From NCBI GenBank assembly GCA_035528495.1, contig DATKYM010000100.1:72784-104783 (forward strand): DNA of 32,000 nucleotides, written 5' to 3'. A program made the position numbers and the translations under genes. The stretch's first letter is position 1. Every line of letters starts with the position of its first letter. This document shows, piece after piece, positions 1 through 22,885 of the stretch. The notes beneath the pieces were generated by a model, which worked only from the letters and a program-made list of their open reading frames with translations, did no database searches and was not told the DNA's origin. Origin of the DNA: Nitrosopumilaceae archaeon (lineage in GTDB: Archaea > Thermoproteota > Nitrososphaeria > Nitrososphaerales > Nitrosopumilaceae).

Positions 1-2660
1 TCAATTTCTTCTTTTGTTGCTTTCTTTCCTGAATCAATAAGAGTTTGTGATTCTATTAATCTAGTAACGTTAAATGCTTCACCATGATCACTTTTTGCCA
101 CATCAATTCCATCTTCTCCATACAAAAATTGAACAATGTGTCCATGTGGGTCTCTAACTGTTCCGTCATATTCTAATCTAATATGCTCAAGAGCATTAAT
201 CAATCGACGCTGCATGTATCCACTTTGTTGAGTTCTAACTGCAGTATCTACTAGTCCTTCTCTACCTCCCATCGCATGGAAGAAAAACTCTAGTGTAGAC
301 AGACCTTCTCTATAATTTGATTTTACAAATCCCTTTGCATCAGGATTTTTATCATGTTCTTGATAGTGTGGAAGGGCACGATTATGATAGCCAGAGTGTA
401 ATCTATTTCCCCTTCTTGATTGTTGTCCCAAAGCACCTGCCATCTGACCGATGTTTAGAGAAGAACCTCTGGCCCCGGTTGTTGCCATAATTCTTCCTGC
501 ATTAGTTTGATCTAAAGATTGATCAGCAGTGGTTCCGGCCTTATCTCTTGCCTTACCTAATTCGTTTACAATATAGGCCTCCAGAGCCTCTTCAGGTTTC
601 ATTCCTCGAGTTAGTTTTAGAGTTCCCTTTTCGTATTGAGAAGTTAAATCTGAAATTATATCATATGTTTCCTGAATGTTATCTAGAATTTGCTGTTTTT
701 CTTTTTCAGGAACTTCCAGATCTGCATAGCCATAACTAAATCCATAGGAAGTAATGTATTGTTTTACCATAATCAAGATTGAATTTAAAAATGATTTTCC
801 AGCAGCATTTCCATAATCTTTTGTAATTCTATGCAAAACACTCTCTGGTTCTTCAGCACCTATTGAGGCCTTGTCAATTACACCACTAATTAATTCACCT
901 TGTTTAATTACAACATCTTTTGGAGATCCGCCTGTTCCCTTTGACCATTTTGAAGTTATTACATAATTGAAGTCTTTAGGCAAGAATAATGAAAATAATT
1001 GTTTTCCAGTATAGGCAGCACCATCTTTTGTTTTAGCAGCAGGTTTTGGTAATGGTTCAGAATATCCACCAAGCATGGCAAGATTCGAGAATTCTTGAGG
1101 GGTTAAAACAGTATCATCTTTGGTTAGAAGATAAGCCCCAGTAACAAAATCTCTTAAAGCGCCGATGATTGGACCTCCATATCTTGGGGAAATTAGTTGA
1201 TCTTGAACTCTCATTAACAAAATTGCCTCAGCCCTGGCCTCTTCACTTTGAGGAACATGCAAGTTCATTTCATCACCATCAAAATCAGCATTATATGGTG
1301 GGCAAACTGATGGGTGTAATCTGAAAGTTCGTCCTGGCAAAACTCTAACATAATGCGCCATTATTGACATCTGATGCAAAGAGGGTTGTCGGTTAAACAT
1401 TACAATATCACCATTTGCCAGATGCCTCTCAATTAGATATCCAATTTCAAGAGTCTCAGCAATGATAGAACGGTCTTCAACAAAGTCAAGTCTAATCTTT
1501 ACACCATCTGGTCGAACGATATAATTTACACCAGGAAAATTACTTGGGCCATTAATTACAAGTTGTCTCATCCTTTCAATATTCCATTCAGTTACAATCT
1601 CAGGAATTGTTAATTTCATTGCAATTTGCTCAGGAACACCAACTTCCGATAAATCCAAGTTTGGATCAGGTGAGATTACTGTTCTGCTTGAAAAGTCTAC
1701 TCTCTTTCCAGATAAAGATCCTCTAAATCTTCCTTCTTTTCCTTTAAGTCTTTGAGTTAGTGTTTTTAGAGGTCTGCCAGAACGATGATGAGCTTGAGGA
1801 ATACCTGAAACTTCATTATCAAAATAAGTGGTTGCATGATATTGGAGTAGGTCCACTAAATCCTGAACAATTAAAGGAGGAGTTCCAGCTTCTTTACTTT
1901 CTTTAAGTCGTTGATTGACCCTGATTATATCTACCATTTTGTGCGTTAAATCATCTTCTGATCTAATTCCTGTTTCAAGGATAATAGATGGCCTAACTGT
2001 AACTGGTGCTACTGGCATTGCTTGTAGAATAAACCATTCAGGTCTTGCAGTTACTGGATCATAGGACAAAAGACTCAGATCAGCATCGGTGATTTGAGTA
2101 AATCTTTCTCTGATTGTAATTGGAAGTAATCTATGTTCACCTATCTCTGTTTTTTCTACAAAGATAGTTGGTTTGGTAAATATCAATTCATATTGTGTTT
2201 TTCCACAATGAGGACACTCTTTTGCTTTCTTTGCCTTTTCAATAACTTGTTCTGGAATACGTTTTTCTGAAAAAACAGTGTATGCCAAGTGTTTATCTTT
2301 AATTGCTTGTAATTCATCTAAATCTTCTTGAGGAACTCTTAGTCTTGCACAAGAGCGGCATGTAGATTGTAAGAGTTTATGGATATTATCAATAAATGCA
2401 ATATGTAAAATAGGTTCAGCAAGTTCTATATGCCCAAAGTGTCCGGGGCATCTTGCAGCAGTGTTTCCACAGGTTAGACATTTTTGTCCAGGTTCTAAAG
2501 TTCCTAATCTTCCATCCATTAATCCACCTTGAACAGGCATTCCATCTTCATCATATGTTTCAGGTGCAGTTATTTCGGAAACAGAATATTTTCTAATTTC
2601 AGTTGGAGACCAAACAGAAAATTTTATTCCGTCAATAGCTTTAATTGATTGAACCGACAT
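1..2660 (-). CDS. rpoA1: DNA-directed RNA polymerase subunit A (A'/N-terminal part; 3' end runs off the window)
   Basis: The minus-strand frame is open from ATG 2660-2658 to the window edge. It is absent from the ORF track because no stop lies inside the window. Hand translation gives MSVQSIKAIDGIKFSVWSPTEIRKYSV..., a Zn-binding CLTCGNTAARCPGHFGHIEL at 2421-2480, and the universal catalytic motif NADFDGDEMN at 1263-1292. The start overlaps the rpoB stop (TAATG). The order H-B-A is the canonical archaeal RNAP operon. Confidence 0.93.
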   Translation of the reverse strand, partial: MSVQSIKAIDGIKFSVWSPTEIRKYSVSEITAPETYDEDGMPVQGGLMDGRLGTLEPGQKCLTCGNTAARCPGHFGHIELAEPILHIAFIDNIHKLLQSTCRSCARLRVPQEDLDELQAIKDKHLAYTVFSEKRIPEQVIEKAKKAKECPHCGKTQYELIFTKPTIFVEKTEIGEHRLLPITIRERFTQITDADLSLLSYDPVTARPEWFILQAMPVAPVTVRPSIILETGIRSEDDLTHKMVDIIRVNQRLKESKEAGTPPLIVQDLVDLLQYHATTYFDNEVSGIPQAHHRSGRPLKTLTQRLKGKEGRFRGSLSGKRVDFSSRTVISPDPNLDLSEVGVPEQIAMKLTIPEIVTEWNIERMRQLVINGPSNFPGVNYIVRPDGVKIRLDFVEDRSIIAETLEIGYLIERHLANGDIVMFNRQPSLHQMSIMAHYVRVLPGRTFRLHPSVCPPYNADFDGDEMNLHVPQSEEARAEAILLMRVQDQLISPRYGGPIIGALRDFVTGAYLLTKDDTVLTPQEFSNLAMLGGYSEPLPKPAAKTKDGAAYTGKQLFSLFLPKDFNYVITSKWSKGTGGSPKDVVIKQGELISGVIDKASIGAEEPESVLHRITKDYGNAAGKSFLNSILIMVKQYITSYGFSYGYADLEVPEKEKQQILDNIQETYDIISDLTSQYEKGTLKLTRGMKPEEALEAYIVNELGKARDKAGTTADQSLDQTNAGRIMATTGARGSSLNIGQMAGALGQQSRRGNRLHSGYHNRALPHYQEHDKNPDAKGFVKSNYREGLSTLEFFFHAMGGREGLVDTAVRTQQSGYMQRRLINALEHIRLEYDGTVRDPHGHIVQFLYGEDGIDVAKSDHGEAFNVTRLIESQTLIDSGKKATKEEI

Positions 2661-5600
2661 TAGACTTTCTCCTTTATCAACAATCTGGGGGCTATATTCA
2701 AACTTTGCATTTCTTGTAACAATAATTTGAAAGCATATGCTACAGTAACCGATGATACTTTGGCTTTATCACCACAAACTCTACAAATATATTTTCTTTG
2801 TTTAACATCATGATAAGCTACTAAACCACATCTTTCACAAACAAAGATATCTGATTTATCGGATTCATCTAACAGTCTATCTTTTAGAATCATAGATGCA
2901 CCATAGGCAATAAGGCAATCTCTCTCCATTTCACCAAATCTTAAACCTCCACCCCTTGCTCGTCCCTCAGTTGGTTGTTTAGTTAACATTTGGACTTGAC
3001 CACGTGCTCTTGCGTGTATCTTATCTGCAACCATGTGATGTAATTTTTGATAATAAACTACTCCAATAAACACTTCAACTGGAAATGGTTTTCCAGTTCT
3101 TCCATCATACATTATTTCTTTTCCAGAATATTTGAAACCTACTGCATCCAAAACTGGTTTAACTTCTTCTAATTTTTCACCGACAAATGCAGAACCATCA
3201 AACTGGCTCCCTCTAAAAGCACCTGCTTTGCCGCAAATTGATTCCATCATCATTCCAACAGTCATTCTAGATGGAAATGCATGAGGATTGATAAGAACAT
3301 CAGGAGAAATTCCTTCTGCAGTATATGGTAAGTCTTCTGCTTTGGCTAAAATTCCAAGGACACCTTTTTGTCCGTGTCTTGATGCAAATTTATCTCCAAT
3401 CTCTGGGACTCGCATATCCCTTGCCCTAATTTTATACATTTTTCCTCCTTCGTTGGATTGCGTCATCACTACAGTATCAATAACTCCAGTTTCAGATGGT
3501 CTTACACCGATTGAAGTATCACGTCGATAAGGGCCAGTTGATTCGAATTCTCTATATTCTTCCATAAATCTTGGAGGACTAGTTTTTCCAATCAAGATAT
3601 CGCCGCCCTTTACAAGTGATTCAGAAGCGACGACTCCATCGTCTTCAAGAAGTCGATAGGCTTTTTCGCCTTTGTAACCTCGGATATTATCTTCAGCATT
3701 TGGGATTTCAAAATTATCACGCATTCCACCAGGATATTGTTTTGCCTCTGCATCATAAACTCTAAAGAAAAATGTCCTGCCAAGACCCCTATCAACTGAA
3801 GATTGACTCAAAACTATAGCATCCTCGATGTTATAACCGTCAAAAGGTAAAACAGCAACAACACAGTTTTGACCTGCTGGTCTATCTTCTAATCCAAGTA
3901 ATTTCATGGCTTTTGTATTTACCATAGGAGTTTGTGGATAAAGCATCAAATGTTGTCTGACATACGTACTTGTGTTCATCATTGGTGTTGAAAATCCTAA
4001 ACTCTGTTTTGCCATTGCAGATTCATATGTATTTCTTGGAGATTGATTGTGCTCAGGATATGGAATGATTGATGCTCCTGCACCTAGAATGGATGGTGGA
4101 AATACTTCTAGGTGAGTATGTTTCTTGACATCTTTATCGTCTAATGTAATGTAACAATTTTCCTCTTCATTAGCATCAATTAATTCAAGTACCCCCATTC
4201 TTAATAGATCATTCCAAGAAAGTAATTTTTTTGTTACCTTATCTAAGAGCTCCTGAGTTAGTAACGATTTATTATCTTTGATAATTATTAAAGGCCTTAA
4301 AACTCGTCCAGCATTGCAATTAACATAGAGTCTCTTAGTAGCACCCTCTGTGTCTGATTGATGGAATGAAATTCCCACATGAGGATGAACTTTTGAGTTT
4401 CTTCGTAAATCTCTAAGCGACTCTGCTAATTCTCCACCATCTTTGAAATATCCAATAAGACGACCATCAACAAATATTCTAGTTCCATCTTTTTTCAAAT
4501 CATCTTTTGCATCAAAGAAATGTACAGTACCTAAATCATATAGTTTTTCAATAATTTCTTCAGATGGGATGTTCACTGAGATAATTCCTGAAAGTGCAAG
4601 ATTTTTTACCAGACCACAATTAGAACCTTCAGGAGTTTCGCTTGGGCAAATTCTTCCAAAGTGTGTAGCATGCAAGTCTCTGGCTTCAAAGTTTGGTTGT
4701 GTTCTACTTAGAGGGGATTGTATTCTTCTTAGGTGGCTAATGGTGGAGAGATAGTTTGTTCTATCAAGAAGTTGAGTCACACCAACTCGTCCTCGCCCCC
4801 AATTCCCAGTTGCAATCGCATTGTTTAACTTATCACTAATTATTCCAGGACGAATTGCAGCAGCTACTGCATTTATTCCCCTTTTCTGACCGGATCTCTC
4901 TAATTGGTATTTCATATCTCTAACTAAATTTCTAAAAGCTGTTCTGAAAAGATCAGCTAACATTTGTCCTGCAAATTTAATCACTTTATTTCCATAATGA
5001 TCTTTGTCATCAGGGTAAATCCATCCTAGTTTTAATTCAAGTAGTTTACATGCCGCCTCCCCCAAAAATTGTGCTTTTTCTTTTCTGTTTTCAGGATGTT
5101 TTCCTAAGTGAGGTAAAAGCCCCCAATCTAAAAGAGTCTCCGCACGTTTAATCTGAAACTCCTCTAACATTCCTGGAGCAATTCTTTTACTGATGTAAAC
5201 AATCGAATCCTTAGAAGTAGGAACATCAGCAGCTTTTTCAAATGATCCTTCCAATTCATCTTGAACTTCTTCAACAAGGGAGACTGCTGCAGCTGTTTCT
5301 ATATCTGATTCTAATCCAAGTGCTCTCATCAAAATTACAACAGGAATATCTACAGGTGAGCCAGGGATTCTAGCTACGATGAGTCCATCATTTTTCATAA
5401 CTAATTCTAATTTTGCACGATAGCCAACAATTGATGAATAGACTTTAGCTTTGAAGACAATGTTTCCTCCAAGGGTTTCTCTATCGACAATTATTTTGTT
5501 GTACGAAAGATCTTCTAATCCTACTATTACTCTTTCAGATCCATTGATGATAAAATAGCCACCAGGATCATTAGGATCTTCTCCATGTTCAATTAATTTT

Positions 5601-6007
5601 TGCGATGAAAAATTATTCAAAACACATGCATTTGATTTAGCCATTACAGGAACATCACCAATGTGCACAAATCTAGATTCTAAGATTTTTCCATCTTCTA
5701 TTACACTGGCCTCCATCATAACAGGAGCTGCATATGAAACATTTCGAAGTCTTGCCTCAGCGGGAGTAATGTGAGTTATGGAACCATCAAGCTCCATCAT
5801 TCTTGGTTGTTGAAGTTTTACTTTACCTAATTGAATTCTGTAAGGGTATTCGGCATTTTCAATTTCTATTTGTCCTACTTCATTAATTATACTTTGAAGA
5901 CCTCTTTCCAAGAATTCGTCAAATGAATTAAGATGTTGTCTGGCAATTCCCTCTCTCTTTAAAATATCCTGAATAATAGGCCAACGTTTAGTTGAAGGGT
6001 CTGCCAT
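2660..6007 (-). CDS. rpoB: DNA-directed RNA polymerase subunit B (unsplit, 1115 aa)
   Basis: 1115-aa ORF with hallmark beta-subunit blocks (…YYQKLHHMVADKIHARARGQVQMLTKQPTEGRARGGGLRFGEMERDCLIAYGA…). It has a C-terminal Zn ribbon (CERCG…CRVCG). It sits between rpoH and rpoA with abutting or overlapping stop/start codons. Confidence 0.97.
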   Translation of the reverse strand: MADPSTKRWPIIQDILKREGIARQHLNSFDEFLERGLQSIINEVGQIEIENAEYPYRIQLGKVKLQQPRMMELDGSITHITPAEARLRNVSYAAPVMMEASVIEDGKILESRFVHIGDVPVMAKSNACVLNNFSSQKLIEHGEDPNDPGGYFIINGSERVIVGLEDLSYNKIIVDRETLGGNIVFKAKVYSSIVGYRAKLELVMKNDGLIVARIPGSPVDIPVVILMRALGLESDIETAAAVSLVEEVQDELEGSFEKAADVPTSKDSIVYISKRIAPGMLEEFQIKRAETLLDWGLLPHLGKHPENRKEKAQFLGEAACKLLELKLGWIYPDDKDHYGNKVIKFAGQMLADLFRTAFRNLVRDMKYQLERSGQKRGINAVAAAIRPGIISDKLNNAIATGNWGRGRVGVTQLLDRTNYLSTISHLRRIQSPLSRTQPNFEARDLHATHFGRICPSETPEGSNCGLVKNLALSGIISVNIPSEEIIEKLYDLGTVHFFDAKDDLKKDGTRIFVDGRLIGYFKDGGELAESLRDLRRNSKVHPHVGISFHQSDTEGATKRLYVNCNAGRVLRPLIIIKDNKSLLTQELLDKVTKKLLSWNDLLRMGVLELIDANEEENCYITLDDKDVKKHTHLEVFPPSILGAGASIIPYPEHNQSPRNTYESAMAKQSLGFSTPMMNTSTYVRQHLMLYPQTPMVNTKAMKLLGLEDRPAGQNCVVAVLPFDGYNIEDAIVLSQSSVDRGLGRTFFFRVYDAEAKQYPGGMRDNFEIPNAEDNIRGYKGEKAYRLLEDDGVVASESLVKGGDILIGKTSPPRFMEEYREFESTGPYRRDTSIGVRPSETGVIDTVVMTQSNEGGKMYKIRARDMRVPEIGDKFASRHGQKGVLGILAKAEDLPYTAEGISPDVLINPHAFPSRMTVGMMMESICGKAGAFRGSQFDGSAFVGEKLEEVKPVLDAVGFKYSGKEIMYDGRTGKPFPVEVFIGVVYYQKLHHMVADKIHARARGQVQMLTKQPTEGRARGGGLRFGEMERDCLIAYGASMILKDRLLDESDKSDIFVCERCGLVAYHDVKQRKYICRVCGDKAKVSSVTVAYAFKLLLQEMQSLNIAPRLLIKEKV

Positions 6008-6259
6008 CTAAATTTCCACCACATACCTATAGTAAAGACTCTTACCGGCAGTTGGACTTTTTCTAGTAATTTTTATCATATCTCCCGGTTTCACACCAAG
6101 TCCCATTATTGCAGGATCGTTTACAAAAATAAATGGTAATTCCGTTGGTTTGCAATTATATTTTTTTAAAATCTCTTCGGCCTCTTTTCTAGACATAATT
6201 TCATGAAGTGGAACATAAACATGGTCTGGTACGAGAACTTGATTTTTTTTAATTGCCAC
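6008..6259 (-). CDS. rpoH: DNA-directed RNA polymerase subunit H (Rpb5 C-terminal domain homologue)
   Basis: 83 aa with an Rpb5/RpoH pattern (VPDHVYVPLHEIMSRKEAEEILKKYNCKPTELPFIFVNDPAIMGLGVKPGDMIKITRKSPTAGKSLYYRYV). GTG start at 6259-6257 is preceded by GGAGGT (6272-6267, minus strand). Its stop (TAG) abuts the rpoB ATG. Confidence 0.9.
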   Translation of the reverse strand: MAIKKNQVLVPDHVYVPLHEIMSRKEAEEILKKYNCKPTELPFIFVNDPAIMGLGVKPGDMIKITRKSPTAGKSLYYRYVVEI

Positions 6260-6428
6260 TTTTTAAACCTCCATCAACAACATCAGATGTAACGATAAAT
6301 AATACACACAAACTGTCAAAAATTCGCGCTGAGGTTAATATATATCTAATCTGATTTCCGTCAGTATTTTTTCTTTTTAGTCAATAAAATTTTTCACAAC
6401 GTTAAATAGTATAATTCGGGGCGTAAAA

Positions 6429-7241
6429 ATGATGAAAACTCATCTATCGGTGTTTGCCTTATTTGCGATCATGATTGCAAGTATTGGAATGGCACCCGCA
6501 TTTGGACAAATAGTGCAACCAATCGTTGTTTCTACTGATAAAGACGCCTATACAGAGGGTGAGACTATCATGGTAACAGGAGAAGTAAGTGAAATTCTTT
6601 TCGGATATGCTGTTAGTCTCATGACTATAGCTCCCAATGGCAATGTAGTTTCAATTGACCAATTAATGGTTGGTTCTGATAAAAAATTCAATACAGAATT
6701 GTCTGCAGGAGGATCGCTCATGAAGGCTGGTGGAGAATACACGATTCAAGTCCTTTATGGAACCGAAAATAGAACAGCAGAGACATCATTCTCATTCCCA
6801 GGATCTAGCGGTTCTGAATCCAACCTTGTACAAGTAGAGGGAACCGACTTTATGATAGGATTTACAATCACAGGTGGAAAACTACTCTCAATCACACCTG
6901 ACGTAAATGCAAATTCTCTCATCATAGCAATTGATGCATGGGATGATGGTCAACTAACCATTACCTTGCCAAGAGAATTGATCGATGCAAAAATTGGAGA
7001 AGATGATGATGATTACTTTGTCCTAGTTGACGGTGAAGAAGTTGACTTTGATGAAACAACCACATCCACAGATAGAACTCTAACAATCCCATTCACAGCA
7101 GGTGCTGAAGAGATTGAAATTATCGGTACACATGTAATTCCAGAATTTGGTGCAATTGCAGCTTTGATTTTAGCAGTAGCAATTATTTCAATAATTGCAG
7201 TTTCTGCAAAATCAAGACTAAGTATTATGCCAAGATACTAG
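6429..7241 (+). CDS. secreted surface protein with PEFG-type C-terminal sorting tail, paralogue 1 (module A + module B)
   Basis: Signal peptide MMKTHLSVFALFAIMIASIGMAPAFG/Q. Module A of about 95 aa (STDKDAYTEGETIMVTGEV…APNGNVVSIDQL…GGEYTIQVLYG). Module B (…GGKLLSITPD…DGQLTITLPRELIDA…YFVLVDGEEV…AGAEEIEIIGTHV). C-terminus is PEFG + hydrophobic helix + SAKSRLSIMPRY. Confidence 0.85.
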   Translation: MMKTHLSVFALFAIMIASIGMAPAFGQIVQPIVVSTDKDAYTEGETIMVTGEVSEILFGYAVSLMTIAPNGNVVSIDQLMVGSDKKFNTELSAGGSLMKAGGEYTIQVLYGTENRTAETSFSFPGSSGSESNLVQVEGTDFMIGFTITGGKLLSITPDVNANSLIIAIDAWDDGQLTITLPRELIDAKIGEDDDDYFVLVDGEEVDFDETTTSTDRTLTIPFTAGAEEIEIIGTHVIPEFGAIAALILAVAIISIIAVSAKSRLSIMPRY

Positions 7242-7280
7242 ACCTACAACTTTTTTTCATTTTTTAAATATCTATAAATA
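7140..7280 (+). repeat. Direct repeat copy 1: PEFG-tail coding end + stop + T-rich spacer + TATA-like box
   Basis: 7152-7266 is 100% identical to 8992-9106. 7140-7242 equals 8059-8161 except for one synonymous T/C at 7151. The post-stop part (7243-7280) is roughly 85% similar to 8162-8199 by eye. Confidence 0.95.
7251..7280 (+). promoter_or_regulatory. Oligo-T terminator-like run followed by TATA-like box for the next paralogue
   Basis: T7 (7251-7257) and T6 (7260-7265) lie 10-24 nt after the stop. TTTTTAAATAT/CTATAAATA (7261-7280) lies about 26-45 nt upstream of ATG 7306. Archaeal termination at oligo-T and A/T-rich TATA boxes are established; the assignment here is by position only. Confidence 0.4.
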
Positions 7281-7305
7281 CCAAGATATATGGTATTGAA
7301 TCAGG

Positions 7306-8160
7306 ATGAATTTGAAAGATTCGACAACATCAATTGTGTTAGGTGTAATGGTATTCTCACTAATAACAATAAGTTCAATTCAACAAGATGTTTTTGCCGA
7401 TATGATGGGAATGTCTTTAACAGCAAAGGCAGCAGAAGGATCAGACACCATCTTAGTTCGCGGTCAAACATCTTCACAGGTTACAGATCTAACATTAACT
7501 GTAATTTCTCCTGATGGATTTAATAGATTGGCAGTTGCACAATTAACTCCCGATTCCGAGGGAAACTATTCTACAGAATTCAAAATAAGTCCCCTTTGGA
7601 AACAAAATGGTTTCTACACAATAACTGGAATGCAAAGTGTAAATAAAAATTCGTTGTACACAATGCAGGTAGAGGTAGAAGTGATTAATGGAATGGCAAT
7701 GGAAACAATGACAACAGAATCAAATTTGGTAACTGGTCTTTTAATGCCAAAAGAATCACAGATTTTCACAGGATTTACCCTAAGGGCTAATGCCATGGAA
7801 GGCTCTACCATCATAGGAATAACTGGACAATCAGATAGAACCAACTTGGATGTAATTTTGAAGGTTATTGCACCAAATGGAAACGTAGTATCTGTTAGTC
7901 AAATTACACCAAATTTAGATGGTAAATTTGCTAAAGACATTACAACAGGCGGTCCGTTATGGACTCAAGATGGTGATTATACAGTATCAGCTCATCAAGG
8001 AGATTTAGCCGATCATAATGCTTCTATAGTGGTAGGGATTATTGATGGTGTAGTTATACCAGAATTTGGCGCAATTGCAGCTTTGATTTTAGCAGTAGCA
8101 ATTATTTCAATAATTGCAGTTTCTGCAAAATCAAGACTAAGTATTATGCCAAGATACTAG
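7306..8160 (+). CDS. secreted surface protein with PEFG-type C-terminal sorting tail, paralogue 2 (module A duplicated, no module B)
   Basis: Signal peptide MNLKDSTTSIVLGVMVFSLITISSIQQDVFA. Two copies of module A (…ILVRGQTSSQVTDLTLTVISPDGFNRLAVAQLTPDSEGNYSTEFKISPLWKQNGFYTI… and …IGITGQSDRTNLDVILKVIAPNGNVVSVSQITPNLDGKFAKDITTGGPLWTQDGDYTV…). Tail PEFGAIAALILAVAIISIIAVSAKSRLSIMPRY is identical to paralogues 1 and 3. Confidence 0.85.
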   Translation: MNLKDSTTSIVLGVMVFSLITISSIQQDVFADMMGMSLTAKAAEGSDTILVRGQTSSQVTDLTLTVISPDGFNRLAVAQLTPDSEGNYSTEFKISPLWKQNGFYTITGMQSVNKNSLYTMQVEVEVINGMAMETMTTESNLVTGLLMPKESQIFTGFTLRANAMEGSTIIGITGQSDRTNLDVILKVIAPNGNVVSVSQITPNLDGKFAKDITTGGPLWTQDGDYTVSAHQGDLADHNASIVVGIIDGVVIPEFGAIAALILAVAIISIIAVSAKSRLSIMPRY

Positions 8161-8199
8161 ATCTATTACTTTTTTCATTTTTTAAATATACATAAATAG
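8059..8199 (+). repeat. Direct repeat copy 2: PEFG-tail coding end + stop + T-rich spacer + TATA-like box
   Basis: 8060-8161 is 100% identical to 8981-9082. The downstream spacer carries the same T-runs and an AAATATACATAAATA box as copy 1. Confidence 0.95.
8170..8198 (+). promoter_or_regulatory. Oligo-T terminator-like run followed by TATA-like box for the next paralogue
   Basis: T6 (8170-8175), T6 (8178-8183), then AAATATACATAAATA (8184-8198), about 26-40 nt upstream of ATG 8224. It is homologous to 7251-7280. Confidence 0.4.
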
Positions 8200-8223
8200 A
8201 GATTCTTGTGAATCGCATACAAG

Positions 8224-9081
8224 ATGAACAACCGTACGACGTTCGCGCTACTAGCCTTTTTGACTGCAGTCAGCACGTTAACTATGTCATCGGCATATGC
8301 TCAACTAGCCTGTCCTGATTGTGGATTAGATGATCCTAGAATAATTGCAAAGCAGTTATTACTTGACGATATTCCAATTTCAATTTGGACGGATAAATCA
8401 ACATATGACCATAATGACACGATTATCGTAGAAGGGCGCGTAGCAAATGTAGTTTCTGGGGTTCCAGTAACACTTACTGTAACGAGTTCCCTACATTCCA
8501 TCATCACAGTTGACCAAATCGTCGTTGATAATATGGGAAATTTTGCAACAATACTCAGTACAGAAGGTGCTCTTTGGAAACATGATGGAAGGTATATCAT
8601 TAAAGCTAATTATGGTAGTGCTGAAAAAAATAGTAGAGTACTAGTAGAGTTAGTTAATGGAGTAGTTTCTGAATCAATAAGTAAAACATGTGGTCAATCA
8701 GAACTTGATGTAATAGGCAATTGTGTGCCATTTAGTATTTCAGGTGGAACTGTAAATCGTGTAAATGTCAATACCAACGATAATTCTATCATCCTGATGA
8801 TCAGCGCAAATGTAGATGGAACGATTACATTAAGCCCATCTAAAGATGTCCTTGAAGGTCCCTTTATGGTACTTGTGGATGATGAACAATGGGATGATGC
8901 TGAAATCAATGGAAACGAAATCACAGTGATGTTCCTAGCAGGTGCTGAAAAGATTGAAATTTTCGGAACACATGTAATTCCAGAATTTGGCGCAATTGCA
9001 GCTTTGATTTTAGCAGTAGCAATTATTTCAATAATTGCAGTTTCTGCAAAATCAAGACTAAGTATTATGCCAAGATACTAG
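8224..9081 (+). CDS. secreted surface protein with PEFG-type C-terminal sorting tail, paralogue 3 (module A + module B)
   Basis: Signal peptide MNNRTTFALLAFLTAVSTLTMSSAYA/Q. Module A (WTDKSTYDHNDTIIVEGRV…VDQIVVDNMGNFATILSTEGALWKHDGRYIIKANYG). Module B (…SISGGTVNRVNVNT…DGTITLSPSKDVLEGPFMVLVDDEQ…AGAEKIEIFGTHV). Same identical PEFG tail. Confidence 0.85.
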   Translation: MNNRTTFALLAFLTAVSTLTMSSAYAQLACPDCGLDDPRIIAKQLLLDDIPISIWTDKSTYDHNDTIIVEGRVANVVSGVPVTLTVTSSLHSIITVDQIVVDNMGNFATILSTEGALWKHDGRYIIKANYGSAEKNSRVLVELVNGVVSESISKTCGQSELDVIGNCVPFSISGGTVNRVNVNTNDNSIILMISANVDGTITLSPSKDVLEGPFMVLVDDEQWDDAEINGNEITVMFLAGAEKIEIFGTHVIPEFGAIAALILAVAIISIIAVSAKSRLSIMPRY

Positions 9082-9106
9082 ACCTACAACTTTTTTTCAT
9101 TTTTTA
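8980..9106 (+). repeat. Direct repeat copy 3: PEFG-tail coding end + stop + T-rich spacer
   Basis: Identical to copy 1 over 8992-9106. The extended similarity to copy 1 starts at 8941 vs 7101 (166 bp, 4 mismatches). It diverges after 9106, so paralogue 4 has a different upstream region. Confidence 0.95.
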
Positions 9107-9142
9107 TTTTTGATAGTAAAGGAGATATAGAAATAATATGAA

Positions 9143-9961
9143 TTGCTTTTTGTGATAGTAAAGATTTTTTTTGTTTTAGCCATATTGATGTTTTCTAGCA
9201 TTCAGGCTTTTGCTCAAAGTGATGAAATTCCATTTCTTGTTGTAAAAACTGACGATAATCACTATGATGAGGGCGACATAATTGTAGTGTCAGGCCAAGT
9301 CCAAACTGTGATTGTTGAAACTCCAATTATTCTTCAAATTTGGTCCCAGGGAAATATGATTGACATTGCTCAATTTTTCCCAGCACAAGATGGTAGTTAT
9401 TCCCAAACAATTATTGCAGAAAAACCATTATGGAAAAATCAAGGGGAGTATGTGATTAGAATATCATATGGTACCGCAAATATTGCCGAAGCCTCAATTA
9501 CTTATACACCAAGGCAAGAATATCTGAAAACTACAGATAGTTTTGAGGTACAAATTCCAAATGGTGGTACCTTCGACCTAGAATATACCATCAATGGAGG
9601 AGAAGTCAAGAATATTATTCTTGACCCAAATAATTTCACTTTATTAATCCAAATCGATTCACCAGATGAGGGAACAATCTCTCTAAAAATTCCCAGAGAA
9701 TCCTTGGATGCTGAAAAATCTGACGGTCAAGATGAGACATTCATTGTTCTAATTGATGATATTCAAGTTCCTTATGAAGAAACAGAGACTAATTCCCAAT
9801 TACGATTCATCTCAATTAATTTTGAAGAAGGAGACTCTGAAATTGCAATCATAGGGACATTTATTGTTCCAGAATTTGGTGCAGTGGCCGCATTAATCTT
9901 AATATCAGGAATTATAATTTCAATAGGAATTTCCAAAAATAAGTTACTATTAAAAATTTAA
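9143..9961 (+). CDS. secreted surface protein with diverged PEFG-type tail, paralogue 4 (module A + module B)
   Basis: Signal peptide …FFVLAILMFSSIQAFA/Q. Module A (KTDDNHYDEGDIIVVSGQV…FPAQDGSYSQTIIAEKPLWKNQGEYVIRISYG). Module B (…INGGEVKNIILDP…EGTISLKIPRESLDAE…FIVLIDDIQV…GDSEIAIIGTFIV). Tail PEFGAVAALILISGIIISIGISKNKLLLKI. The start is non-AUG (TTG 9143 or GTG 9152); the first in-frame ATG (9188) would truncate the signal peptide. Confidence 0.8.
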   Translation: MLFVIVKIFFVLAILMFSSIQAFAQSDEIPFLVVKTDDNHYDEGDIIVVSGQVQTVIVETPIILQIWSQGNMIDIAQFFPAQDGSYSQTIIAEKPLWKNQGEYVIRISYGTANIAEASITYTPRQEYLKTTDSFEVQIPNGGTFDLEYTINGGEVKNIILDPNNFTLLIQIDSPDEGTISLKIPRESLDAEKSDGQDETFIVLIDDIQVPYEETETNSQLRFISINFEEGDSEIAIIGTFIVPEFGAVAALILISGIIISIGISKNKLLLKI

Positions 9962-9968
9962 ATTTTAA

Positions 9969-11126
9969 TTAAAAAGAATATTTTTCTTTAAAGGGTGAAA
10001 AAGCCCGCAGTTCTTTGACCACGTTTTTTAATATTTCAACAGTTTTATCCATCTCTTCTAAATTATTTGATGTCCCAATAGTGAGTCGTAAAGAACCTGT
10101 TATTTGCTCGTGAGAAAATCCCATTGCTTGGAGTACATGAGATGCTTTTTGTATTTGGACTGAACATGCAGAACCCGTAGATGCAGCAATTCCGAATTCA
10201 TCGAGTTTAATTAAAAGATCTTCGCCGTTAACGCCAAGAAAAGTCAAGTGAACATTATTTGGTAATCTTTCTTCAGGATGACCATTCAAGGTAACTTCAG
10301 GAATTTCTTGTATGATTTTGGTAGAAAGATAATCTCGTAATTCTTTCATTTTGGTGGAATTCTCCAAAAGATTAATGCTTGCCAGTTCACAGGCTTTTCC
10401 AAAACCTACAATGTTAGCTACATTTTCTGTTCCTGAACGTAAACCATTTTCTTGGCCACCACCTAGAATAATTGGATCTATTGAGATTCCATTTCTAATG
10501 TATAAGGCTCCTATTCCTTTAGGACCGTTAATTTTATGAGAAGAAATCGAAAGAAGATCTATTCCTAATTCTTTTACATTTATTGGGATCTTTCCTGTAG
10601 CCTGAACTGCATCAGTATGAAAAATAATATTTTTTTCTTTACAGATTTTGGCAAAATCAAATATTGGTTGAATTGTTCCCACTTCGTTATTTCCAAACAT
10701 GATAGAGACAAGTAAAGTATTTTCGGTGACGGAATTTTTTAAAATCAATGGATCTACCAATCCATAATTATTTACGGGTAGATGGATTATATCAAATCCC
10801 TCCTTGGCCAATATTTTACACGGCTCCAAAATCGCATCATGTTCGATCGATGAAGTGATAATGCGAGACTTGGGATTTTTCTTTGTTATTCCAAAAAGAA
10901 CCATATTATTTGATTCAGTACCTCCAGAAGTAAATAGAATTTCAGAAGGATCGGCGTTAATTAAATTTGCAATCTGTTTTCTTGCTTTCTTTACAGCTTT
11001 ACCTGCATCGCGGCCATACCTATGAATTGATGAAGGGTTTCCATATTGTTCCTTTAGATAAGGTAGCATTTCTTCAAGTACTAATTCATGTATTTTTGTA
11101 GAGGCAGCATTATCTAGATAAATCAA
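9969..11126 (-). CDS. nifS: cysteine desulfurase, NifS/IscS family (PLP-dependent, class V aminotransferase fold)
   Basis: Canonical N-terminus MIYLDNAAST, PLP-lysine block SSHKINGPKGIGALYIR and active-site Cys loop STGSACS. TTG start (11126-11124) overlaps the larE stop as TTGA. Confidence 0.92.
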   Translation of the reverse strand: MIYLDNAASTKIHELVLEEMLPYLKEQYGNPSSIHRYGRDAGKAVKKARKQIANLINADPSEILFTSGGTESNNMVLFGITKKNPKSRIITSSIEHDAILEPCKILAKEGFDIIHLPVNNYGLVDPLILKNSVTENTLLVSIMFGNNEVGTIQPIFDFAKICKEKNIIFHTDAVQATGKIPINVKELGIDLLSISSHKINGPKGIGALYIRNGISIDPIILGGGQENGLRSGTENVANIVGFGKACELASINLLENSTKMKELRDYLSTKIIQEIPEVTLNGHPEERLPNNVHLTFLGVNGEDLLIKLDEFGIAASTGSACSVQIQKASHVLQAMGFSHEQITGSLRLTIGTSNNLEEMDKTVEILKNVVKELRAFSPFKEKYSF

Positions 11127-11932
11127 TCTGCGATCACATTTATTTTTCCTGGTTTATACCCATCAGGATCTACAATAACATCTAAAAATCCAATTAATTT
11201 TAGTTTCTTGATAATATCTTCTAGAATTGCGCTATCCCTTAAAATCTGAATTTTGTCTTTTTCTACTTCTATTTTCGCTATACCATTTAAATCTCTCACC
11301 CTGACTTGTTTTAATTTTGTTCTTTGTTTTACAATTGTTTCTCCAAACTCTATTCTAAGTAATCTTTCAGATGTAATTTTTTGACCCCAAGGAATCCTAG
11401 ATGCTAAACAAGAATTAGAAGGTTTATCATAAACTGATAATCCAACGGATTTTGCAATTTCTCTAATTTCATTTTTATTTAATTGATTTTCTACTAATGG
11501 GCTTCGAATACCATTTTGTTTTAAAGCATCTATCCCAGGCCTATATTCCCCTAAATCATCCAAGTTTGTGCCATCCACAATTAATTCAATATCATGTTTT
11601 TTTGCTAAATCGACTAAATGAGTGCTTAATTCGTTTCTACAATGAAAGCATCTTTTAGAATCATTATTTACAAAATCTTCATTTTCAAGCTCATCATAAT
11701 CTATTAGAATTTGAGATATTCCAATTTCCGAGCAAATTTGTTTTGAAGTTTCAAGTTCTTCTTGTGATAATGTTTTGTAATCAGCAGTAACTGCAATAGC
11801 AGAAGATCCTAATTTTTGATATGCAGCATATGCTACTAAAGCACTATCAACTCCACCAGATAGAGCGACAAAAACACGATTCTTATCTTCAAACCAATTC
11901 GTTAGATTTTCAAGTTTAGTCATGTTCAACAT
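11123..11932 (-). CDS. larE: LarE-type ATP-dependent sulfur transferase (PP-loop ATP pyrophosphatase) for nickel-pincer nucleotide cofactor synthesis
   Basis: PP-loop LSGGVDSALVA, a LarE-like SNSCLASRIPWG block (Cys175) and a CFHC pair (Cys95/Cys98). It lies 2 nt downstream of larC and overlaps the cysteine desulfurase gene. Confidence 0.88.
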   Translation of the reverse strand: MLNMTKLENLTNWFEDKNRVFVALSGGVDSALVAYAAYQKLGSSAIAVTADYKTLSQEELETSKQICSEIGISQILIDYDELENEDFVNNDSKRCFHCRNELSTHLVDLAKKHDIELIVDGTNLDDLGEYRPGIDALKQNGIRSPLVENQLNKNEIREIAKSVGLSVYDKPSNSCLASRIPWGQKITSERLLRIEFGETIVKQRTKLKQVRVRDLNGIAKIEVEKDKIQILRDSAILEDIIKKLKLIGFLDVIVDPDGYKPGKINVIAD

Positions 11933-11934
11933 TC

Positions 11935-13152
11935 CTACCGTATGATTTCTTTTCTAATCAATAGTTCGGTTTCCTTAATTGATTTATTGAGGTGGTTTGC
12001 GATTTTTTTCAAATCGTCAAATTCAATTTTAAAGGTAGATTTTCCTTTAAAAGTTGAAGATTTGTATCTTACATCAAAGATTTCATTTTCCAAAGTTATT
12101 TTTACTTCATTGGTTGTTCTTGGGACAGTTATTCTATCAGAGGACATAACTCGTATTCCCAAGGTTCCAGTTTCGGTAATCAAAGTATCAGTTATCTTCT
12201 CCATGGTGGTATAATCACATATTATAGATACAAGATTTGTGGGTCTGCCTTTTTTTGTAATTCCATGATAAATGGATGCATCCTTGGCACCATCAACCAT
12301 AATTTTTTCAATTAGATTTCCCAATATTTCCCCAGAAACATCATCTACATTTGTTTCGAGAATAATAACTGAATCAGTTTCAAAATTATTTTTTAACCCC
12401 TTTACAATTTTTACCACATTAGAGAAATTATCAAAATCATTTTTCCCTGCCCCATATCCAATAGAATTGATTTTCATTGAGGGATAAAATTCAATTGGAG
12501 TATTAGTTAAATTTACTAAAATACAGGCCCCAGTCGGAGTAGTTAATTCATTTTTTACAATACTGCCATGAATTATCAAATTAGAATTTTTTAAAATTTC
12601 AAGAACTGCACTTGCAGGATTAGTCATTGTTCCATGTGAGAAAGTTATCGTGCCACTTCCAACACAAATGGGCATAGAGACGATTTCGTCATCGAAAAAG
12701 CCTAAATCATCAATTGCTATTCCAACTCCTATTATGTCAACAAGAGTATCAATGCTTGATGCCTCATGGAAATGAACAGATTCTATTGAAATTCCATGAA
12801 TTTTTGATTCAGCTGCAATAAGAGTATCAATGCAAGATTCCACAAAAATTTTTGTCCTCTTAGATAGCCCCAATTCGTTTGCTGATTTTTTTATAGCTTG
12901 TTTAATTTCAGAGCCCTTTCTTTCATGTGTTTTTTCATCGATATCTAAAATTAACGCAGTGGATTCTATTCCATGTTTATTGACTTTGATAAAATCAATT
13001 TTTTTTATGTTAGAATCTGGAAGAAATTTTTTTGAAGATTGTATTCCATCAAGTATCTTATTTTTATTTGCCCCCAAATCAACTAAGGAGCATAAAATCA
13101 TATCCCCAGATATGCCAGCTACATATGGATCTATAACGATGACCATAGACAA
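11935..13152 (-). CDS. larC: LarC nickel insertase (DUF111/UPF0272 family)
   Basis: 405 aa. The N-terminus …VIDPYVAGISGDMILCSLVDLGAN matches the LarC/DUF111 signature (…D.FSGISGDM.LGAL.DLG). Size and synteny with larE fit. Confidence 0.88.
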   Translation of the reverse strand: MSMVIVIDPYVAGISGDMILCSLVDLGANKNKILDGIQSSKKFLPDSNIKKIDFIKVNKHGIESTALILDIDEKTHERKGSEIKQAIKKSANELGLSKRTKIFVESCIDTLIAAESKIHGISIESVHFHEASSIDTLVDIIGVGIAIDDLGFFDDEIVSMPICVGSGTITFSHGTMTNPASAVLEILKNSNLIIHGSIVKNELTTPTGACILVNLTNTPIEFYPSMKINSIGYGAGKNDFDNFSNVVKIVKGLKNNFETDSVIILETNVDDVSGEILGNLIEKIMVDGAKDASIYHGITKKGRPTNLVSIICDYTTMEKITDTLITETGTLGIRVMSSDRITVPRTTNEVKITLENEIFDVRYKSSTFKGKSTFKIEFDDLKKIANHLNKSIKETELLIRKEIIR

Positions 13153-13238
13153 AAAATAACTAAAAATGCATATAAATTATGTCTAATTAATTCACAAATT
13201 TCACTAGATTTAATTAATGAAATTTAACACATCTTTTC

Positions 13239-14153
13239 ATGATTACAATTATAGGATCCGGAAAGGTTGGTGGAGATGCAGCATTATTTTCTGCATTAAA
13301 ACGATTAGACGATCAAATATTGTTACTTGATGTTGTTGATGGACTCCCTCAAGGAGAAGCAATGGATATCAATCATATGTTATCAGAGCAAGGAATTGAC
13401 GTAAAGGTTACAGGTTCTAATAATTTTGCCGACATGGAAGGTTCTAAAATAGTTGTAGTTGTGGCAGGTTCTGGAAGAAAACCCGGAATGACTAGAATGG
13501 ATCTTTTAAAAATCAACGCTAATGTTGTTAAAAGCGTTGTTGAAAATATAAAAAAACATGCAAATGATTCTATGATTATCCCAGTTACAAACCCCTTAGA
13601 TCCAATGGCTTACGTCACTTACAAATCATCAGGATTTGAGAAAAACAGAGTTTTTGGAATGGGTGGAATGCTAGATTTGTCAAGATTTAGACAATTTATC
13701 CATGAAGCTACAGGACATTCTCGTGATTCCATTAGAGCGCTTGTAATAGGGGAACACGGTGAAAACATGTTACCACTTCCTAGGTTTTCATCTGTTTCAG
13801 GTATCCCTCTATCTTCATTTCTACCAAAAGAAAAATTAGATGAAATTGTTCAAAATACAAAGCAAGTTGCGGCAAGAGTAATTGAATTAAAGGGGGCAAC
13901 TGTTCATGCTCCTGGAAATGCCATCTCTGCAATTATAGAATCAGTTGTAAGAGATAGGAAACAGATAATTCCAGTCGCCACATATCTTGATGGGGAATAT
14001 GGGCATTCAGATGTCACAATTGGAGTGCCAGCAATAATCGGAAAGAACGGCGTAGAAAAAATAATAGAGTTAGATCTTAATGACGAAGAGAAAAAAATAT
14101 TTGATCTAGGGGTAAAAAATGTAAAGGAAGCCATTTCGGGTATGGAAATCTAA
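13239..14153 (+). CDS. mdh: malate dehydrogenase, LDH-like family
   Basis: Rossmann start [12 protein letters not shown]. The substrate loop [15 protein letters not shown] has Arg at the position that is Gln in true lactate dehydrogenases. Also GEHGENM and a typical length of 304 aa. Confidence 0.9.
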
Positions 14154-14156
14154 GCC

Positions 14157-14163
14157 TTTTTTT
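14157..14163 (+). terminator. oligo-T run just after mdh stop
   Basis: T7 starts 3 nt after the TAA of mdh. However, larB begins only 24 nt later at a forced TTG start, so read-through or co-transcription is also plausible. Confidence 0.3.
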
Positions 14164-14186
14164 ATTCAATAACAATTTAATCATTA

Positions 14187-14972
14187 TTGGAAATTCAAGA
14201 AATTCTAGAATCATTGGAAAGGAGAAAAATTTCTACTCAAACTGCCAAAAAAATGTTGTCACTTTATTCAATCGAACAAATAGAAAATATAGCTAAAATT
14301 GACGTAAATAGAAGAAAAAGAAGAGGAATACCTGAAGTAATTTTTGGAGAAAGTAAATCTATTGACGAAATAAAGAAGATCCTCAAAATTACATTGGAAA
14401 AAACCAATTCAGTAATTGTGTCTAGAATAAAACCAGAAGATTATCCTAAAATAATTTCTTTTTGTAAACGATTGAAAATAAAAATAAAGGTGGGGAAAAA
14501 ATCATCCTCACTTTTATTATTTAAAAAACCAATTAAATTCAATGGAGGTAAAATTGGGATAATAACTGCAGGGACATCAGATATTGGAGTAGCAGAAGAA
14601 GCAAGATTGATGTGTGAAGCTATGAATTGCAAAAGCATTACAAGTTATGATGTTGGAGTTGCAGGAATTCAACGAATATTTCCTATTTTAAAAGAAATGA
14701 TAGAAAAAGAGGTTGATTGCGTCATAGTTGTAGCTGGAATGGAAGGTGCTTTGGCAACATTGGTTTCTTCTATGGTAGATATTCCCGTTATTGGAGTACC
14801 TACATCTGTTGGATATGGTTATGGTGAAAAAGGAATTGCAGCCCTTGCTTCAATGTTACAAAGCTGTTCGCTGGGCTTATCTGTTGTAAACATTGATAAT
14901 GGAATTGCAGCAGGTGCCATTGCAGCTAATATTTCCAACAGAGTCAATGGCAAAAACAAAAAGACGGAATAA
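14187..14972 (+). CDS. larB: LarB, pyridinium-3,5-biscarboxylic acid mononucleotide synthase (PurE/AIR-carboxylase-like)
   Basis: N-terminal helix plus …NRRKRRGIPEVIFGESKS…, then GIITAGTSDIGVAEEA and VVAGMEGALATLVSSMVDIPVIGVPTSVGYG, all characteristic of LarB. The TTG start is forced: an in-frame TAA lies at 14178-14180 and the homologous N-terminus begins immediately after it. Confidence 0.88.
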   Translation: MEIQEILESLERRKISTQTAKKMLSLYSIEQIENIAKIDVNRRKRRGIPEVIFGESKSIDEIKKILKITLEKTNSVIVSRIKPEDYPKIISFCKRLKIKIKVGKKSSSLLLFKKPIKFNGGKIGIITAGTSDIGVAEEARLMCEAMNCKSITSYDVGVAGIQRIFPILKEMIEKEVDCVIVVAGMEGALATLVSSMVDIPVIGVPTSVGYGYGEKGIAALASMLQSCSLGLSVVNIDNGIAAGAIAANISNRVNGKNKKTE

Positions 14973-17214: not shown

Positions 17215-18186
17215 TTAAATTTTTGATTTAATTTGCCTATGAATTGTAAATCCAATAGCGGCTGGGGCTGCCAAATACAAACCCAAATTTAGCGCAATAA
17301 CAGATATTCCCAAAGCTAAGACTTGACTATCGTTTCCTTCTTCTGCTAATGTCATTATGGACAAAGTAGAAATCATCGGGGTGATAAATAATCTAACAGC
17401 CTCTTGGAAGACCGGATTCTCTCTTTCCAGATCAGCGATTGTTGGTGAGAATGAATAGTATAATTGGTTAAAACCAGTCATAAATGCTGAGCCTGATGTA
17501 GTTCCCATCACGGTGTTGTCCCTAATTTCTCTCAAAAATTGGACTTGGGGTGCAAGTTCAGATCCAAATGCCGCCGTAGCAATAAGGCATCCTCCTCCGC
17601 GGTCATTAATCACTTCACATTTACCGTTTACGAGTTCAGTTCCTGTACCACAAATTGGCTCTGGTTCAGGGTCGGGCTCAGTGACTTTAGGTGGTTCGGG
17701 TTCTCTTGGTGGTTCTGGTTCTCTTGGCGGTGTAGGTTCTCTTGGGGTTGTGGGTTCATCTTGTCCTGGTAATGATGGCTCGAAAATTCCACCTGTGTAA
17801 AGCATAGTTGTTTCACCCTTTATTGCCCCAAAGAATAATTGAATTTTATAATTGCCACTCTCCTTGAAGTAAATTCCTCCTGTAACAAAATTAAAAGAAA
17901 ATGTCCCATCAGAATTGGGTACCATCTGACCGATAGTTACAATATTTCCCACTGTATCCATAAGACGGTATGTCAAAGCTGTATTAGAGTGGATATCAGG
18001 ATCGAAATCACGAATGAATCCATCTACATAAGCTCTATCACCATTTTCATATGAGGGTAATTCGGTCTTGGCAGAAATCGGCGGAATATTATGAGAATCT
18101 GCAAATACAGAACCACTAAAGCCATATGAAAAGATGGAGAAAGATAAAAGTACGAACACAAGAAAACCAGCAAGTCTCATTTTCAT
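17215..18186 (-). CDS. secreted chimeric surface protein: module A + Pro/Glu-rich linker + Cys knot + CLIATAAFGS-type C-terminal membrane domain
   Basis: Signal peptide MKMRLAGFLVFVLLSFSIFSYGFSGSVFA. Module A (…YENGDRAYVDGFI…VGNIVTIGQMVPNSDGTFSFNFVTGGIYFKESGNYKIQLFFG). Linker EPTTPREPTPPREPEPPREPEPPKVTEPDPEPEP. Then CGTGTELVNGKCEV and GGGCLIATAAFGSELAPQVQFLREIRDN, followed by hydrophobic segments. Confidence 0.85.
   Translation of the reverse strand: MKMRLAGFLVFVLLSFSIFSYGFSGSVFADSHNIPPISAKTELPSYENGDRAYVDGFIRDFDPDIHSNTALTYRLMDTVGNIVTIGQMVPNSDGTFSFNFVTGGIYFKESGNYKIQLFFGAIKGETTMLYTGGIFEPSLPGQDEPTTPREPTPPREPEPPREPEPPKVTEPDPEPEPICGTGTELVNGKCEVINDRGGGCLIATAAFGSELAPQVQFLREIRDNTVMGTTSGSAFMTGFNQLYYSFSPTIADLERENPVFQEAVRLFITPMISTLSIMTLAEEGNDSQVLALGISVIALNLGLYLAAPAAIGFTIHRQIKSKI
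17690..17761 (-). repeat. degenerate 18-bp tandem repeat (4 units) encoding the PREPEP linker
   Basis: Plus-strand units are ggtggttcgggttctctt / ggtggttctggttctctt / ggcggtgtaggttctctt / ggggttgtgggttcatct. Translated on the minus strand these give (P)REPxPP repeats. Confidence 0.8.
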
Positions 18187-22881: not shown

Positions 22882-22885
22882 TAGT

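Follow-up and report, generated by a model that had tools for sequence, protein, structure and literature searches.

A conserved cluster of four PEFG-CTERM paralogues with tail-confined concerted evolution in Nitrosopumilaceae

The window analysed here is a stretch of 32,000 nucleotides (nt) of contig DATKYM010000100.1 (assembly GCA_035528495.1) from a Nitrosopumilaceae archaeon, a marine ammonia oxidiser, and it contains an array of four adjacent paralogous genes (genes 1 to 4) for small proteins with a signal-peptide-like N-terminus and a C-terminal PEFG-CTERM tail. Comparison within the Nitrosopumilaceae shows that these genes form an ancient, stably inherited four-gene cluster, in which each position is an orthologous lineage of its own and not an interchangeable cassette. 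The explanation that we favour, if only by a modest degree of confidence, is that the array is a conserved cluster of four separately transcribed paralogues, which encode acidic, PEFG-anchored structural proteins of the cell envelope beneath the S-layer. As an annotated and conserved PEFG-CTERM gene cluster, ordinary in kind, the array was already known. New are the strict orthology at four positions, the concerted evolution confined to the tails, and one of the two ectodomain modules, module B, which has neither a Pfam match nor a relative of solved structure that can be found by sequence.

Species-representative genomes were scanned with hidden Markov models built from the window's own modules, and this yielded 80 Nitrosopumilaceae loci, with genus labels that include Nitrosopumilus, Nitrosarchaeum and Nitrosomaritimum, among others. 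With A and B denoting the two modules, the order AB-AA-AB-AB is found at 42 loci from several genera, the window included; no locus carries an extra gene copy, and most of the shorter contigs end within the array. For each of the four genes, the best match lies at the same array position in 1722 of 1722 comparisons. In the window, the array is flanked upstream by rpoH and rpoB (2660-6259, minus strand; identified from their translations only) and downstream by a gene for a class-V aminotransferase of the cysteine desulfurase type (9969-11126, minus strand). The same flanks recur at the 41 other loci, with rpoH upstream in all of them and the cysteine desulfurase gene downstream in 40.

Median identity to the window proteins is 65, 56, 60 and 51% for genes 1 to 4, compared with 93% for RpoB, 84.5% for RpoH, 74% for the desulfurase and 73% for a LarE-like protein. 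Thus, the four genes evolve faster than their cytoplasmic neighbours, and surface proteins usually evolve faster than cytoplasmic ones. The ratio of non-synonymous to synonymous substitution rates (dN/dS) in six pairwise comparisons is 0.11-0.29 over the whole ectodomain-coding part of the genes, indicating purifying selection, and 0.05-0.13 for the neighbours, a range that leaves out nifS in L005 and rpoH in L014, for which a wrong open reading frame (ORF) had been picked.

All four ORFs are on the plus strand, are separated by spacers of 64, 63 and 61 nt and together span 6429-9961 (Table 1). These coordinates and spacers agree with a first-pass annotation of the window, made from its letters alone, which had described four co-oriented ORFs 61-64 nt apart that encode PEFG-tailed secreted paralogues. 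The N-termini of the four proteins are hydrophobic and signal-peptide-like and, read by eye from the sequence, end in AFG/Q, VFA/D, AYA/Q and AFA/Q in genes 1 to 4 (pattern A-[FY]-[AG] / Q or D). Direct reading of the C-termini gives PEFG in all four, followed by a hydrophobic stretch of ~20 residues and then by basic residues. Genes 1, 2 and 3 pass the PEFG-CTERM model TIGR04296 with 41.3, 41.2 and 42.6 bits at a curated cutoff of 25 bits. Gene 4 stays under the cutoff with 19.6 bits, and its assignment is carried by its orthologues at other loci, ten of ten of which pass with 29-49 bits. The mature proteins would be small (~215-230 amino acids, aa) and the median net charge of their ectodomains is -24, -16, -18 and -28 for genes 1 to 4.

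Table 1. Coordinates of the array genes, repeated tails and intergenic regions in the window.
Feature	Position	Strand	Description
Divergent intergenic region, rpoH (-) / gene 1	6260..6428	+	TATA-like TTAAATAGTATAAT at ~6402-6415, kept across loci
Gene 1	6429..7241	+	270 aa; putative signal peptide aa 1-26, module A 27-125, module B 126-236, PEFG tail 236-270
Repeat copy 1	7092..7266	+	End of module B, PEFG tail, stop codon and T-rich terminator-like run
Spacer, genes 1/2	7242..7305	+	Oligo-T runs CTTTTTTTCATTTTTT, then TATA-like AAATATCTATAAATA ~25 nt before ATG
Gene 2	7306..8160	+	284 aa; putative signal peptide aa 1-31, module A copy 1 32-135, module A copy 2 151-249, PEFG tail 250-284
Repeat copy 2	8011..8185	+	79% identity to copy 1 over 175 nt; 3 base differences in the 105-nt coding tail
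Spacer, genes 2/3	8161..8223	+	T-run plus AAATATACATAAATA, layout as in spacer 1/2
Gene 3	8224..9081	+	285 aa; putative signal peptide aa 1-26, Cys-containing N-terminal extension 27-46, module A 47-146, module B 147-251, PEFG tail 251-285
Repeat copy 3	8932..9106	+	97% identity to copy 1; 1 base difference in the 105-nt coding tail
Spacer, genes 3/4	9082..9142	+	T-run as in the other spacers, then a different conserved element GATAGTAAAGGAGATATAG
Gene 4	9143..9961	+	272 aa, TTG start as called; putative signal peptide aa 1-24, module A 25-124, module B 125-241, divergent PEFG tail 241-272 with final residues KNKLLLKI

Segment-wise BLAST divides the ectodomains into two module types, in accordance with the first-pass proposal: module A of ~95-100 aa (A-A pairs at E 1.7e-5 to 2.5e-17) and module B of ~105-115 aa (B-B pairs at E 8e-10 to 3.5e-21), arranged as A+B in genes 1, 3 and 4 and as A+A in gene 2, the two halves of which share 39% identity (E 6.6e-16). 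The ectodomains of genes 1 to 3 are merely 32-41% identical to each other at the protein level. The idea that A and B are diverged copies of one module was rejected, as there is no significant A-B pair in BLAST and a probability of just 0.4% in an hhalign profile-profile comparison. Gene 3 is the only one to encode four cysteines, of which two lie in the C..C motif of its N-terminal extension and two between modules A and B. Four cysteines are found in the gene-3 protein at most of the 42 loci, which suggests the presence of two disulfides.

The wider family contains 4646 relatives at E<=0.001 in a profile search of 1.84 billion representative proteins. Among the best 150 of these, which reach 1915 aa in length, the number and order of modules A and B vary widely, and the PEFG tail is missing in 44. 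The notion of shuffled modules, which the first-pass annotation had applied to the array, is therefore true of the superfamily over deep time and not of the array itself, in which the order is the same at 42 loci.

The 105-nt coding tails of genes 1 to 3 differ by only 1-3 bases in the window, and the repeat extends into the start of the spacer. The whole encoded tail is identical in the three window proteins, and the form ...SAKSRLSIMPRY is widespread in the family. Over the 35 loci with canonical tails, DNA identity of the coding tail is 94.8% between paralogues within one genome, 89.1% between orthologues in other genomes and 88.4% between paralogues in other genomes; when tail and flank are taken together, within-genome identity exceeds cross-genome paralogue identity at 35 of the 35. 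Lineage-specific substitutions can be common to all three tails of a genome, such as TIAVMILAV at two Nitrosarchaeum loci and SIVAV...SIIPRY at L012. The tail has a very low dN and a dS lower than that of the ectodomain, while the tail of gene 4 is different and evolves faster. This pattern looks like gene conversion confined to the tail and terminator of genes 1 to 3, together with strong purifying selection on the sorting signal.

Two loci deviate from the complete array: L010 (9884-11583) contains genes 1 and 4 only, and L051 (6678-9335) contains genes 1, 3 and 4, without gene 2. The spacer that remains in each is exactly that expected from recombination, or from assembly collapse, between the repeated tails, and the two cases may be either real deletions or metagenome-assembly collapses over the ~130-nt repeat. 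The helix-coding part of each repeated tail also contains a 20-nt near-palindrome, GCAATTATTTCAATAATTGC (7179-7198, 8098-8117 and 9019-9038), which may simply result from the way in which the AIISIIA stretch of the helix is encoded. It is the sole notable inverted repeat in the window, where neither flanking inverted repeats nor another invertible-element signature were found.

The spacers are kept across genera, with an oligo-T run right after the stop codon and a TATA-like box ~25 nt before the next start; in front of gene 1, TTAAATAGTATAAT sits ~14-27 nt upstream of the ATG. Under standard archaeal promoter and terminator rules, the T-run and the TATA-like box in each spacer would act as terminator and promoter, suggesting four separate transcription units with leaders that are very short or absent. 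Six loci (L030, L033, L056, L058, L070 and L077) contain insertions of 2.5-4.3 kb in the spacers, the ORFs of which appear transposase- or integrase-like by eye. These insertions lie between genes 1 and 2, except in L056, where the site is between genes 2 and 3. It seems that the short conserved spacers either tolerate mobile elements or attract them.

The structure of the gene 1 protein as predicted by AlphaFold2 (mean predicted local distance difference test, pLDDT, 79.9 from a 107-sequence alignment) shows a seven-stranded and a nine-stranded β-sandwich, followed by a C-terminal helix at residues 240-261. The model of gene 2 (pLDDT 70.4) contains two similar sandwiches and a helix at residues 255-275. 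By using Foldseek against the PDB, only generic tandem immunoglobulin (Ig)- or macroglobulin (MG)-like proteins were retrieved (E 7e-7 to 1e-4, TM-score 0.22-0.31), including complement C3, C4 and C5, TEP1, A2M, A2ML1, antibody Fabs, the Vibrio matrix protein RbmA and the Haloferax S-layer protein (7ptp); the TM-scores to MG domains are low (0.25-0.31) because two domains are aligned together. Both modules are thus predicted to be Ig/MG-like β-sandwiches, and for module A the models and weak matches to Pfam MG2 (PF01835) are in line with the macroglobulin/Ig-like character noted in the first pass. The MG2 score of gene 2 (19.6 bits, E 0.0012) is under the gathering score of 32.8, and PF01835 is found at E<=0.01 in just 7 of 107 members of the gene-1/3/4 family, while many gene-2 orthologues bear precomputed PF01835 matches. 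Module B matches no Pfam family. When the PDB was searched by sequence, neither a profile of genes 1, 3 and 4 plus orthologues nor gene 2 alone found a match. In neither module is a His, Cys or Met position invariant, as might be expected of a metal site.

Exact copies of genes 1 to 3 are present in public databases, where genes 2 and 3 correspond to HUU49211.1 and HUU49212.1. These two entries, the exact match of gene 1 and its close cluster-mates bear the PEFG-CTERM name. The neighbourhood seen in the window is also contained in Dataset S1 of Bayer et al. 2019 (PMC6593220), which covers the strains N. maritimus SCM1, N. adriaticus NF5 and N. piranensis D3C. In this dataset, the consecutive groups OG1213-OG1219 comprise rpoB (OG1213), rpoH (OG1214), four PEFG-CTERM domain-containing proteins (OG1215-OG1218; IMG gene ids 641315970-641315973 in N. 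maritimus) and the cysteine desulfurase (OG1219). The syntenic orthologues are expressed at the protein level, as determined by proteomics. Two of the four cluster proteins (OG1215 and OG1216) are among those that respond to H2O2 in all three strains, and under H2O2 three PEFG-CTERM proteins are 4-10 times more abundant, with a rise in S-layer proteins as well (PMC6593220). A literature search for the guessed locus tags Nmar_0339-0350 found nothing. In the first-pass annotation, an array that is invariant and single-copy-like in all relatives and not expressed had been named as evidence against its own reading; the invariance is indeed observed, but expression is not lacking, because the proteins are detected by proteomics.

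In the favoured explanation, the four proteins would be exported via their N-terminal signal peptides by the Sec pathway, and the PEFG-CTERM tail would hold them at the outer face of the cytoplasmic membrane. The processing of PGF-CTERM proteins by ArtA in Haloferax serves as the analogy for the next step, in which the tail is probably recognised by a thaumarchaeal archaeosortase whose gene would lie elsewhere in the genome, and which would cut near PEFG and swap the helix for a lipid anchor. Pfam or NCBIfam scans of 20 of the larger ORFs at 9969-31955, a set that leaves out antisense ORFs, rpoB/rpoH and the cut gene at 1-2659, gave no archaeosortase match, as the first-pass annotation had also stated for the window. 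The acidic two-domain ectodomain appears too short to pass the S-layer and would therefore probably reside in the pseudoperiplasm, where it could serve as a structural or protein-binding component of the envelope.

Several known systems resemble the array proteins in part. The PEFG-CTERM proteins of TIGR04296 are proposed substrates of a thaumarchaeal archaeosortase. The array proteins share with them the PEFG motif, the hydrophobic helix and the basic end at the extreme C-terminus (41-43 bits for genes 1 to 3), and exact or near-exact database copies bear that name. This family is, however, defined by its tail alone and includes multicopper and cupredoxin enzymes, whereas the cargo here consists of two non-enzymatic β-sandwich modules, and gene 4 of the window is under the cutoff. 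The S-layer glycoprotein of Haloferax volcanii (7ptp), a PGF-CTERM protein processed by ArtA and the rank-2 Foldseek match of gene 2 (E 8.8e-7), is likewise a secreted chain of Ig-like β-sandwiches with a tripartite C-terminal sorting signal. It differs in its motif (PGF instead of PEFG), in the class of its sortase and in its many more domains (725 residues in the solved chain), and it forms the lattice itself; the array proteins have two domains, occur as four paralogues and show no detectable sequence similarity to it. The MG domains of alpha-2-macroglobulin, complement C3 and TEP (PF01835) have the same seven-stranded sandwich fold as that predicted for module A. The window score is under the Pfam threshold, and neither a match nor a domain was found beyond the tandem β-sandwiches, which points to a resemblance in fold and not to family membership.

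A parallel to the role proposed here is provided by the SlaB-type anchors of Sulfolobales, which are small, membrane-anchored proteins with β-sandwich domains and a C-terminal transmembrane segment under the S-layer canopy. A SlaB homologue has been reported in Nitrososphaerota (PMC11153153). Unlike SlaB, the array proteins carry PEFG tails and comprise four distinct paralogues. Their only helices in the AlphaFold2 models are the signal peptide and the tail helix, and a coiled-coil stalk is thus not predicted.

Several points weigh against the proposal of sortase-processed structural proteins. The Foldseek matches are generic and their TM-scores low, and they thus speak to the fold class and not to function. 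The correspondence of the H2O2-responsive groups OG1215 and OG1216 to genes 1 and 2 would follow from gene order only. Experimental evidence for the cleavage of any PEFG tail was not found in the literature searched, and the very strong conservation of the whole tail, including its cytoplasmic KSRLSIMPRY end, means that the tail could be kept in the mature protein. Retention of the tail is the basis of the main mechanistic rival, which we consider rather unlikely: the four products would be type-I membrane proteins that keep the PEFG helix as a permanent transmembrane anchor without sortase cleavage, and their conserved cytoplasmic end would have a role of its own, for example in partner binding or in helix-helix packing among the proteins of genes 1 to 3. 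Such a role would be in keeping with the identity of the three tails in the window, the wide occurrence of this tail form, and the very low dN of the tail, the dS of which is also under that of the ectodomain. A tripartite architecture such as that of the tail is, however, characteristic of sorting signals for exosortases and archaeosortases, for which the matching model was built, and the post-helix end of gene 4 is quite different, yet gene 4 belongs to the cluster.

A cassette array for surface variation or adhesion, in which interchangeable ectodomains on a constant anchor are diversified by recombination, had been the interpretation of the first pass; it is largely refuted by the comparative data and now appears very improbable, though the proteins may yet have a role in adhesion or elsewhere in the envelope. 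The near-identical direct repeat of tail and terminator could support recombination, and the free combination of A and B in the wider superfamily and the faster evolution of the ectodomains relative to the neighbouring genes also speak for such an array. Within the array, however, order and copy number are the same at 42 loci across genera, synteny is fixed and positional orthology is strict (1722/1722 per gene), only the tail is homogenised, and the gene-wide ectodomain dN/dS is 0.11-0.29. In L010 and L051, internal genes are missing in exactly the way that tail-tail recombination would yield, but these deletions may be artefacts of metagenome assembly. An invertible-element signature is lacking, none of the 20 scanned neighbour ORFs encodes a recombinase, and a membrane-anchored mature protein of ~220 aa would probably not extend beyond the S-layer. 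It is equally hard to credit that the proteins are accessory parts of a pseudoperiplasmic machinery for ammonia oxidation, copper or electron transfer. In Ca. Nitrosopelagicus brevis, two proteins of the PEFG-CTERM type are co-expressed with amoABCX and nirK (bioRxiv 10.1101/175141), and gene 2 of the window is Met-rich, with 10 Met in its ectodomain. The sole co-expressed PEFG protein of identified kind in N. brevis, however, is the cupredoxin enzyme T478_1362, which is outside the A/B family, and modules A and B contain neither invariant His, Cys or Met residues nor Pfam matches to cupredoxin or other redox domains. A candidate Met-rich Cu(I) motif at the N-terminus of gene 2 was rejected, since it is not conserved and only G-M is kept.

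The remainder of the window was surveyed through the same 20 ORFs, which encode housekeeping or metabolic proteins or transporters, or have no family match; further PEFG-tailed ORFs within ~10 kb of the array were found at none of the loci. The region 9969-14972, to judge by its Pfam matches, encodes the cysteine desulfurase, a lactate/malate dehydrogenase, LarC (Ni_insertion), a PP-loop protein that resembles LarE and an AIR-carboxylase-domain protein that resembles LarB, and looks like a set for the biosynthesis of the nickel-pincer cofactor. A metal-handling neighbourhood at 21523-25112 encodes a ZIP-like transporter, a cation-efflux protein of the CDF type in which three ZT_dimer stretches occur, and a 352-aa protein that is hydrophobic at its N-terminus and has its best matches, far under the family cutoffs, in copper nitrite reductase and multicopper oxidases.

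Two further genes on the minus strand connect the modules to other envelope proteins. The gene at 18240-21428 encodes a secreted 1062-aa homologue of the N. maritimus S-layer protein NmSLP (PDB 8c8k, 1734 aa), with residues 11-842 aligned to NmSLP 25-968 (phmmer E 1.6e-108). Its C-terminus (~950-1062) differs and contains, by eye, a module-A-like stretch followed by two copies of a ~45-aa motif (W.SN.ISD.EF...KGII.IP); this region also matches many A/B-module proteins without PEFG tails. The gene at 17215-18186 encodes a 323-aa protein in which a signal peptide and a single module A are followed by a linker rich in Pro, Glu and Thr and by a CFI-box-CTERM domain (NF041770, 73 bits). Taken together with the C-terminal motif of the S-layer protein homologue, this indicates that A/B modules bear at least three alternative C-terminal tags. 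A fusion of S-layer domains to A+B+PEFG that could serve as a "Rosetta stone" was considered and discarded, as the S-layer-like part of the homologue finds no match among the large A/B-module representatives.

The anchoring of the S-layer in N. maritimus was explicitly left open in the paper on its structure (PMC11153153). A more specific version of the favoured explanation, which is speculative and on present evidence quite improbable, is that the four paralogues assemble in the pseudoperiplasm into a defined, strongly acidic hetero-oligomer that acts as a layer or tether, and that the tails of genes 1 to 3 are kept identical because they pack or are processed together. If true, this tether would answer how the Nitrosopumilus S-layer is anchored: it could bridge the membrane and the inner, flexible end of the S-layer protein and could extend the cation-concentrating charge gradient of the S-layer towards the membrane-bound ammonia monooxygenase.

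In the ocean, Nitrosopumilaceae rank among the most abundant archaea, and the ammonium that they nitrify is thought to be concentrated by their envelope. The four-gene cluster is present in nearly all recovered Nitrosopumilaceae loci that are long enough to show it, and the homogenisation of the anchor alone provides a clean, small example of mosaic concerted evolution. As the cluster is conserved, expressed and stress-responsive and encodes acidic proteins that are probably tethered to the membrane, it represents a reasonable candidate for a component of this envelope.

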